A DNA stretch of 64,000 nucleotides. Origin: an uncultured Hormoscilla sp. Its GTDB lineage: Bacteria > Cyanobacteriota > Cyanobacteriia > Cyanobacteriales > Desertifilaceae. The position numbers and the translations under genes are program-made. The stretch covers positions 6,560,001-6,624,000 of the forward strand of contig OZ001293.3 of assembly GCA_963921275.4 (NCBI GenBank), written 5' to 3'. Below are positions 3,831-5,584 of the stretch, in pieces. Within the stretch, counting starts at the first letter, position 1; every line of letters begins with the position of its first letter. A model generated the notes under the pieces. The model was not told where the DNA came from, searched no databases, and saw only the letters and a program-made list of their open reading frames with translations.

Positions 3831-5584
3831 GTGCGATTCGTTTCGGACCTAAACCGGCGACGGTGAAAGTCTGAGCTGGTTTCATTAGCCAGACAACTCT
3901 GGTCATCATGGGGGTTAAATTCCCTCTCCCTAGGTGTGGGGGTAACACCGGTCCTTAGTGCTGCGGAGTCACATCGCCGTGGTGCTCCGCTAGGACTTAA
4001 ATGTAGGATAGCTGGCAGCCTAAGCCAGTGACGCCGCTAGGAAAGATGCTCATGGTTAGAACAAGCGAACCTGTGAAAGCCTCGTAATATTAAACCAGCG
4101 GAATAAGGCTTATACGCTGGCCCAAAAGGGAAAAGGTAGTTAGTGTTGGTAGTTCCAAATGACCAGCATCGCGCCCGAAGAACTCCCGGAGTAAAGCAGG
4201 GGCCTAAAAGCATCGTGAAATGAGACCAGGGAACGAAGTAACCTCTCGTGTGCAGTTCGGCTCAACGGGGCCGAACTAGTTAGATGTAGTGCGATTCGTT
4301 CTAGTCTAACGTGGGCAACTACGGAACGCTAGGCCAGGTCCAAACTGGTAACTCTGGTATTCATGGGGGTTAGATTCCCTCTCTCCAAGTGTGGGAGTAA
4401 CACCGGTCCTTAGTGCTGCTGAGTCACATCACGGTGGTGCGGAGCAAGGACTTAAATGTAGGATAGCTAGCAGCCTAAGCTAGTGACGCCGCTAGGAAAG
4501 ATGCTAATGGCTAGAACAAGCGAACCTGTGTACGCCTCGTTATCTAGAACCAGCGAAATAAGGCTTAAAGCGCTGGCCCAAAAGGGAAATGGTAGTTTGT
4601 GCTGGTTCTTGCACTTGGCCAGTATCGCACTCTAAGAACTCCCGGGGTATAGCAGGGGCCTAAAAGCATCGTGAAATGATACTAGGGAACGAAGTAACTT
4701 CTCGTGTGCTGTCTAGATTGGACAAGTTAGATGTAAAGCGCAAGCCGCGAGGGGAGAGATAGCCCGAGAAGCTAATGCCTAGGGTAACGCCTATGGATAT
4801 GATGGGGTGTTCCTCATCCAGCTGACGCGGGTTGGTTAAAGTAGGAAATCTTGGGTAAGAGTATCTCTAAGACGCCGGAGGCCTCTCGAAGGTTGGATGA
4901 CTGGTAAAACAGACTTGGAAATGGTAATACTAAAGGTTATCTGGCAGCGCCGCTTACCAACCAGGAAAGGAGTGAAATCGCATGAGATGAGGGACAAGTG
5001 GAGCAATCCGTAGTAATCCTAGTAGTGACAATGCCCTACTTGCCAGTAGCCGGATGCGGTGAAAGTCGCACGTCCGGTTCCGAATGGGAGGGTTAGGGGG
5101 TGACCCCTAGCTCGACCCCGACTAAGCACAAGCCACGAAGAGGAAGGATGTCCTAAGAAGCCAATGCCCAGGGTAATGCTTGTGGATATGCAGACGTAGG
5201 ACGGATATGGTAAGAAGCCTTTGGTGAAAGTAGCCCTAATATGTTGCAGAACTCAGGAGAAATCCAAGAGTTGGAATATGGACTAGAGTCTCAGCCGGGT
5301 AAAGTTCAGAGCCCCGATAAAGCGAGAATGGGGAACTGTTAGTAGAGAGCGGTTAGAATGGTTTGCTGAACTAACCTCCGCGAACCTTCCGGAGCTGAAA
5401 TCATTAACGGTCCAATAGGATTGACCATAAGGGGTGAAATTGCAAGAGGTAAGGGACAATAGGGGTAACTCTTAGTAATCCTACTGGTGAAAGCAGCTTA
5501 CCAACCAGTAGCCCCAGCGATGAAAGTTGCAAGTCCGGTTGCGAAAGGGAGGGTTTGGAAGTGATTCCGAGCTCGACCCCGACC
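3831..5584 (+). mobile_element. ORF-less group II intron (outer member of twintron)
   Basis: GTGCGA start, DV-like AGCCCCAGCGATGAAAGTTGC, DVI ending CTCGACCCCGACC; boundaries restore the host frame. Confidence 0.92.
4289..5123 (+). mobile_element. ORF-less group II intron nested in domain II of the outer intron
   Basis: GTGCGA start; canonical DV AGCCGGATGCGGTGAAAGTCGCACGTCCGGTT; removal restores TAGATGTA|AAGCACAAG as in other copies. Confidence 0.93.

Follow-up and report, generated by a model that had tools for sequence, protein, structure and literature searches.

Retrohoming with a reverse transcriptase (RT) supplied in trans is an established part of group II intron biology. In Thermosynechococcus elongatus, the ORF-less intron TeI3 is described as being mobilized in trans by the intron-encoded proteins (IEPs) of driver introns (Mohr, Ghanem, and Lambowitz, 2010; PMC2882425). 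ORF-less IIB introns of Trichodesmium erythraeum are reported to be spliced by trans-encoded maturases (PMC4649490). For Ll.LtrB, the anchor of the IEP is given as DIVa, at the 5′ side of domain IV, which includes the Shine-Dalgarno sequence and the start codon (PMC6144810).

The window analyzed here is a stretch of 64,000 nucleotides (C1:6560001-6624000) of a 7.0-Mb Hormoscilla genome. Hormoscilla is a sponge-associated cyanobacterium, and our literature search returned no publications on introns in this genus. The feature studied is the type-A domain IV at 5203..5506 (+), closed by a basal stem (5203-5214 with 5497-5506). It belongs to an outer ORF-less group IIB2 intron (3831..5583, +) that starts with GTGCGATTC, ends in domains V and VI, and is host of a twintron, the inner member being an ORF-less intron at 4289..5122 (+) with a second type of domain IV (type B) at about 4834-5044. 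The same GTGCGATTC start is found in introns 3831, 4289, 26604, 34517, and 54890 and fits the IIB2 5′ end GUGCGAUUC, a consensus taken from the description in PMC4649490. Domain V of the outer intron (5510..5540, +) keeps the AGC triad, and its mispaired lower helix is the reason why it scores just 23.7 bits against RF00029 (cut-off, 40); domains V and VI of 4289, 6567, and 62111 score above the cut-off. The twintron lies antisense within an adenosine deaminase gene, with A_deaminase halves on the minus strand on either side of it (5584-6270 and 3468-3794), and splicing therefore cannot restore the gene. The upstream half covers profile positions 3-221, and the downstream half covers positions 260-315.

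The original prediction held that a domain IV of about 300 nt is common to copies 3831, 6567, 26604, 34517, and 54890. Exactly these five were matched in the window by a covariance model of the core of the domain, at 108 to 113 bits with the next match at 12 bits, all five having been training sequences of the model. The four other domains lie at 7178..7488 (+), 27132..27453 (+), 35055..35359 (+), and 54045..54344 (−), respectively. The second type attributed to 4289, 47251, and 62023 exists, although the shortened domain IV of 47251 (46520..46728, −) retains a GGTAAAA..ACCAAC stub alone; the minimal type of 62111 (62620..62788, +) is present and consists of the outer scaffold alone. A AGGGACAA-hairpin-TGACAA sequence, said to be kept by all copies, is exact in six of the nine named (in the window, AGGGACAA-N10-35-TGACAA occurs 6 times versus 0.03 expected); for TGACAA, 3831 carries GGTGAAAG and 34517 carries AGGAACAA, and 62023 is interrupted there by an intron at 63488.

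Several other introns were observed in the window. A CL-class IIB2 intron bearing an RT gene lies at 35615..38018 (+), this copy having an in-frame stop at codon 428; intact relatives are present elsewhere in the genome, and introns of this kind are the presumed suppliers of RT in trans. The region 62023-64000 is triply nested, intron 62023 carrying 62111 in its domain I and, within the GNRA hairpin of domain IV, an RT-type intron that starts at 63488. At ~56300-56650 (−), a 5′-truncated intron lies beside a DDE transposase fragment; its domain IV insert is of a fourth, longer kind (about 275 nt), of which four complete copies exist elsewhere. Copy 26604 (26604-27530) has a minus-strand twin that starts at 597 and extends past the window start.

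The fold of type-A domain IV was modeled on 31 non-redundant domains from five congeneric genomes, aligned by sequence (66% mean identity). The 67 pairs of the model were chosen by hand on the basis of pair counts, in part from this same alignment; RNAalifold alone overlooked most core helices. The basal stem comprises 10 pairs that are 100% paired in the 31 copies, 7 of them with double changes. It is followed by a long-range arm (5217..5237 with 5431..5450, +), in which 5218-5449 and 5222-5445 covary and where the conserved AAGTA of the 5′ strand lies opposite GAAA/CAAA in an internal loop that may be loop-E-like. This arm encloses a GNRA hairpin and the type-A core, a three-way junction of ~140 nt (5279..5414, +) without ORF match. 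The core is formed by helices 5279-5284/5409-5414, 5288-5296/5392-5400, and 5298-5300/5384-5386, by an arm (5349-5352/5378-5381), and by a variable hairpin (5305-5339). Beyond the long-range arm come a GNRA hairpin arm that is common to all domain IV types (5453..5482, +; 297-324 and 306-308/313-315 covary out of sample) and a small hairpin beside the basal stem (5484..5496, +). In type B the insert differs, but the surrounding basal stem, arm, and two 3′ hairpins are the same and covary strongly. RT-bearing copies could form a TGTCA/TGACA kiss; in type A, columns 47-50 pair with 332-335 in 1 to 11 of the 31 copies.

Pairing in the 31 copies reached 91.7% under this model, versus 82.7% for column shuffles and 35 to 52% for slid partners, and double changes were observed in 40 of the 67 pairs. 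Covariation was assessed with an R-scape-like procedure that combined the G-test with APC and took its null from simulation along the tree. Significance against this tree-aware null was reached by 11 of the 67 proposed pairs, an optimistic figure given that the model was partly chosen on the same data. Testing all positions against all in the 31-copy alignment left a single significant pair, 5350-5380, and across this and the out-of-sample set just 1 to 2 pairs pass. The out-of-sample set consisted of 52 further matches in the congeners, reduced to 36 non-redundant copies (57% identity) and added by sequence alone; they were chosen with a model that holds the core helices and of which the 3′ hairpins are not part. 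These copies showed 77.5% pairing versus 34 to 44% for slid partners (90.7% when the pairing was fitted with the model), and 7 of 63 pairs were significant, located in the arm and the outer helix of the core and in the two 3′ hairpins. The energy of single-sequence folding is ordinary (z of −1.05 and −0.78), and the structural case therefore rests on covariation and not on stability.

The compensatory stems quoted in the original prediction are all present (5291/5389, 7271/7370, and 35145/35242), with covariation in their outer part alone (5294-5395; E of 0.0004 in a two-set test). Their CCGG/CCGG part does not covary: at pair 117-227, 18 of the 31 copies have G-C and 13 have A-C, the pair being broken in 26604, and the invariant helix at this place is GGU/ACC (5298-5300/5384-5386). 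As predicted, there is no conserved frame, given that none is open across the core in the 31 copies, whose lengths fall 9/13/9 over the three frames. Rfam holds no family that matches domain IV above the gathering threshold (best overlap, RgsA at 14.7 bits, E of 1.9); this includes group-II-D1D4, for which the sole match, at 18.5 bits (E of 1.3), lies in domain I. Domain IV is confirmed as a real, selected, structured RNA without a reading frame.

The core covariance model matched 87 copies in the genome, and 87 of 87 lie in domain IV; 63 of them were placed there by an automatic check of context, and the 24 that were judged by eye also run into the intron 3′ end, five of them being cut at the 5′ side. 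In the congeners the model gave 58, 44, 14, and 1 matches, and all 52 that were fetched have domain V downstream. Type-A sequence is present in four of four congeneric genomes and in none of 36 other sampled genomes. Two further sets, each of 150 cyanobacterial genomes, gave no convincing match to the core model, and searches of metagenomes, viral contigs, and plasmids likewise gave nothing convincing. Weak matches in three genomes (G036, G086, and G126) and 11 pattern matches in metagenomes were judged to be due to chance. Type-B sequences were also scored with the type-A core model; 4 of 14 gave a match where expected, at a non-significant 5 to 7.5 bits. The core is an undescribed RNA fold, so far confined to one genus. 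Our search, mainly at the level of abstracts, found no published description of this domain IV module, an earlier one in the ORF-less intron survey of Simon et al. (2008) being possible.

Two of the three functions that the original prediction offered for the module are disfavored. It is very improbable that the core is an independent passenger ncRNA or that it enables protein-free folding and spread. The core does act as a swappable module and has no known homologue; nevertheless, every copy here and every one fetched from the congeners stands directly upstream of domain V, with no convincing match in the two 150-genome samples, viral contigs, plasmids, or metagenomes, and protein-free folding cannot account for the spread because insertion into DNA requires an RT.

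Comparison with RT genes indicates that both ends of domain IV are relics of such a gene, the middle ~190 nt being without detectable ORF origin. The start relic (5238..5282, +), with its ATG at 5241-5243, spans codons 1 to 13 and now holds the GNRA hairpin 5252-5270. The 3831 copy is identical to the start of MSRN-type RT ORFs at 30 of 42 nt, ungapped, and at 6 of 13 residues in frame, its translation from ATG 5241 reading MLQNSGEIQELEY versus MSRNLAEKQEYEW in those ORFs. In a position-anchored test, the 60 nt after the AAGTAG motif (an anchor present in 49 of 60 sequences) were compared with windows of RT introns and ranked the RT ORF start first of 157 windows, with z values of 5.7 for type A, 4.5 for type B, and 12 for the minimal type. 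The last 70 nt of domain IV ranked the RT ORF end first of 154 (z of 3.5 to 3.7). Off-target windows reach z values of 3 to 4.8 by chance, so that the case for the relics depends on the matches falling where predicted. Indeed, when the domain was tested in segments, columns 42-103 and 320-345 alone landed at the predicted RT positions; the middle segments were scattered at chance level (z of 2.4 to 4.8), without detectable colinear similarity to RT genes.

The finding of an RT remnant by tBLASTn, named with the original prediction as an outcome that would refute it, was obtained in a weak form. With the RT of the window as query, no match was obtained inside domain IV among 323 domain IVs; with the N-terminus of another co-resident RT subfamily, a remnant was found in a sister copy at the expected place (E of 8e-4, versus 0.006 for the best of 119 control windows). 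A type-A profile run with nhmmer on the domain IVs of 24 RT introns matched the last 15 to 23 nt alone, with E of 3 or worse, and in an unanchored local profile-profile alignment the 5′ part scored no better than other windows. At the 3′ end, the relic comprises the last ~8 codons, and the small hairpin 5484..5496 is homologous, by position and by sequence, to the ACCC-ATGACAA-GGGT hairpin, which codes for THDK where the RT gene ends. RT-bearing introns fold this same terminal hairpin beside their basal stem, after a tetraloop hairpin of their own. At the 5′ end, an AAGTAG..AATATGTC-like start motif is also visible in RT-bearing introns of other cyanobacteria. Two dialects of the start region of RT-bearing introns, TCACGGAAC and GTCATRRGC, are both found among ORF-less copies, which would fit retained old variation, exchange of patches with RT introns, or tracking of helpers.

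The contrast originally drawn between a structured RNA and a decayed ORF therefore holds for the selected structure and for the middle ~190 nt, and fails at both ends. This revives the question of whether the whole domain could be a decayed RT gene, its helices serving as neutral structured filler that avoids misfolding of the ribozyme. The gene relics at both ends, several by-eye resemblances to RVT_N codons, the tolerance of inserts that differ in sequence and length, and the ordinary folding energy would all be expected of such filler. We nonetheless regard this explanation as improbable, given that the middle 190 nt lack a colinear ORF signal and that the invariant unpaired residues, the GNRA loops kept through stem changes, and the fixed junction geometry, seen over five genomes, exceed generic self-pairing. 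We also rejected a related idea, formed by eye, in which the entire interior would be colinear with RT codons 1 to 75, since its middle falls at chance positions.

Searching the genome with a domain V profile gave 493 matches, 370 preceded by CAGT (ORF-less) and 68 preceded by GAGG (RT-bearing). Domain IV could be excised at 335 places (one of them, in purA, false), which were assigned by motifs to type A (61), type B (251), and other or minimal types (22 to 23); a limit of 90% identity divides them into 42 variants, the two largest of which hold 141 and 75 copies. In a tree of domains I to III (DI-DIII; midpoint root, bootstrap not fully converged), 46 ORF-less rows were split from 8 RT-bearing rows by a long branch with support of 100/100, a topology that indicates a single origin of the ORF-less copies. 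The two groups are 68% identical over the aligned columns of DI-DIII, versus 62% for shuffles, and the branch between the ORF-less lineage and its presumed helpers amounts to about 1.4 changes per site. Type A requires 10 changes on this tree, at least 4 of them forced by supported branches, and near-identical intron backbones bear different domain IV types. This scatter shows that domain IV modules were exchanged or repeatedly trimmed.

Recurrent replacements of multi-base words were observed in unrelated intron subfamilies, genome-wide and in the congeners, affecting domain I, domain V, and the RT gene (LQKRI to LLLRI in 13 copies) and accompanied by short GC-rich HIP1-like insertions; either gene conversion or a templated mutational process may underlie them. 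The domain IV of a type-B family of 137 copies is roughly 95% identical in another congener (L122:3828-4067 of G004 versus G000:C1:1776-2015), which suggests recent exchange between species.

A scan for the domain I motif gave at least 22 loci, all from Hormoscilla among the matches listed, and none of these 22 congeneric loci, again among the matches listed, has an RT gene or is an ORF-bearing member of the lineage. In a blast of DI-DIII against 400 genomes of the phylum, five short, weak matches were obtained, three of which are ordinary RT-bearing introns. The model of the 3′ scaffold reached further, with three matches in a genome of a second family (G017, f5; best E of 2e-7; all ORF-less IIB2), a weak match in another genome of this family (G431), and two copies in a genome of a third (G556, f6); no match was found in 151, 144 (family f29), and 89 genomes of other samples. 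The basal stem and arm of these copies from outside the genus pair fully or nearly so. The outer scaffold is thus found in two other cyanobacterial families, three in all, and the lineage is older than the genus, though sporadic. RVT_N is also present in G017 and G556 and was not found in G431. The two copies of G556 (L234 599-1659 and L235 599-1659) are near-identical ORF-less IIB2 introns that sit just past promoter-like sequence heading two different tRNA arrays, and their domain I includes tRNA-like T-arm sequence.

The ORF-less copies are inserted at hundreds of sites under the guidance of their EBS. In three families, 131 copies occupy 114 distinct flanks, 71 copies occupy 61, and 15 occupy 13, and up to 53 identical copies stand at different flanks. 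The last six bases 5′ of the insertion complement the EBS1 loop of the family concerned (AGACTC/GAGTCT, TGCACT/AGTGTA, and TGCCTC/GAGGCA). The genome also contains intact RT genes, namely, 14 stop-free full-length RT ORFs with YADD, 9 of these genes' ORFs carrying an HNH pattern. Taken together, the matched sites and the intact ORFs point to retrohoming with a borrowed RT. A search of the target sites for a common signature of the helper gave no more than a weak purine bias at −15. Six copies of the 137-copy type-B family (G0+1327546) sit within domain IV of another intron of that kind, a self-nesting that takes place at AAGTCT.

Recruitment of an RT in trans, known from TeI3 as described in PMC2882425, is the best supported of the three functions originally offered. 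The core is missing from the two largest, recently spreading families and hence cannot be what the RT grips in general. For that role the strongest candidate is the start-codon region, because it is retained and because the IEP anchor described for Ll.LtrB covers the same region (PMC6144810). The long-range arm, however, takes the place of the local DIVa hairpin of RT-bearing introns, so that the binding site would not be the same structure as in those introns.

The most surprising point is the presence of domain V lesions in copies that have spread. Of the four largest type-A families, three have a domain V that is mispaired or lacks its GAAA loop (5510-5540, 27454-27485, and 54013-54044), and domain V is non-canonical in 42 of 61 type-A versus 10 of 251 type-B copies; the copies are not independent, the 42 corresponding to three or four events. 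Six identical type-A copies of 926 nt with a mispaired domain V occupy six different sites. In a type-A subfamily of 18 copies (for example, G000:C1 221894-222057, −, and 1876444-1876607, +), the mispaired domain V is accompanied by loss of the small 3′ hairpin and of the 3′ strand of the basal stem. These copies, mostly 94 to 99% alike, still stand at about 16 distinct EBS1-matched sites, which shows that this part of the 3′ scaffold is not strictly required. Among the congeners, domain V is paired at the majority of type-A loci, and mispairing is seen in other types as well (loci not deduplicated). Introns with a mispaired domain V either still move, perhaps helped by the core, or received lesions that spread later by gene conversion.

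These lesions raise the possibility that the core has a job of its own in the ribonucleoprotein (RNP), binding a host or helper protein or propping up the catalytic center such that copies with a mispaired domain V splice and move. Besides the excess of damaged domains V in type A and the six identical copies, such a job would explain why the 18-copy subfamily retains the core though its 3′ scaffold is lost, and why the fold and the invariant unpaired words GGUAAAA, AGUAAAGAG, and GAACC are conserved over five genomes at about 57 to 66% identity. We consider it unlikely, however, because the most successful families lack the core, domain V is paired at most type-A loci of the congeners, the lesions trace to so few events, and no complementarity between the core and domain V is evident.

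The explanation that we favor as probable is that of an old ORF-less IIB2 lineage that lost the greater part of its RT gene, kept the ends of it as RNA, and refolded them, the product likely serving as a handle for an RT in trans. The start region and the last codons of the gene were retained, and domain IV would have refolded around them. RT proteins of co-resident RT-bearing introns would then bind domain IV and splice and retrohome the ORF-less copies. We infer that binding takes place at domain IV; docking would most likely occur at its 5′ part, on the AAGTAG motif and the start-codon relic, in line with the position of IEPs on DIVa. The ~140-nt three-way junction would be an optional, exchangeable insert, selected for its fold and not needed for mobility, that most likely stabilizes or tunes the RNP or protects the RNA. 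The distance of the lineage from its presumed helpers, much larger than that of TeI3 from TeI4, counts against this explanation.

More tentatively, and with a rather low likelihood in our judgment, this ancient lineage may have been non-autonomous for long enough to spread over three cyanobacterial families and to turn domain IV into a plug-in adaptor. The adaptor would combine an address derived from the relics, by which two helper RT subfamilies are tracked, with a new junction that binds a factor or rescues the mispaired domain V. If so, defective ribozymes could keep retrohoming. Returning to the favored explanation, servicing of the ORF-less copies by a distant RT would provide a natural model for the passage from a self-contained retroelement to many introns with one splicing factor, and the natural variants of domain IV, which number in the dozens and range from long and medium to minimal and 3′ damaged, would allow a direct test of the RNA features that an RT recognizes.

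The closest described system is TeI3. As presented in PMC2882425, it shares with the introns studied here membership of the cyanobacterial CL-class IIB introns, a single origin through loss of the ORF, of which N- and C-terminal remnants persist, covariation in domain IV of the ORF-less copies, families that differ by EBS divergence, twintrons, and ORF-less copies that outnumber RT-bearing ones. The last hairpin, too, is the THDK end of the RT gene in both. TeI3 is, however, described as a IIB1 intron with 17 copies and one fixed deletion, whereas the introns here are IIB2 with about 335 to 370 copies; and the close identity of TeI3 to its helpers (85 to 100% to TeI4) contrasts with about 68% over DI-DIII here (PMC2882425). 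Further differences from TeI3 as described are the rewiring of the long-range arm, the existence of three or more interchangeable inserts, and the occurrence of relatives of the present lineage in three cyanobacterial families. The introns of T. erythraeum, another marine filamentous cyanobacterium, share the GUGCGAUUC 5′ consensus, an IEP in trans, and twintrons; the account in PMC4649490 gives ten copies, mainly in genes, and such a domain IV module is not mentioned in the part of it available. As in the DIVa of Ll.LtrB (PMC6144810), the start-codon region is the best-retained part here; unlike in that IIA intron as described, the equivalent segment is predicted to pair over a long range and not as a local stem-loop. 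A lifestyle in which ORF-less introns are served by the enzyme of other introns is thus known, and the introns of Hormoscilla likely represent an unusually old and diversified form of it.
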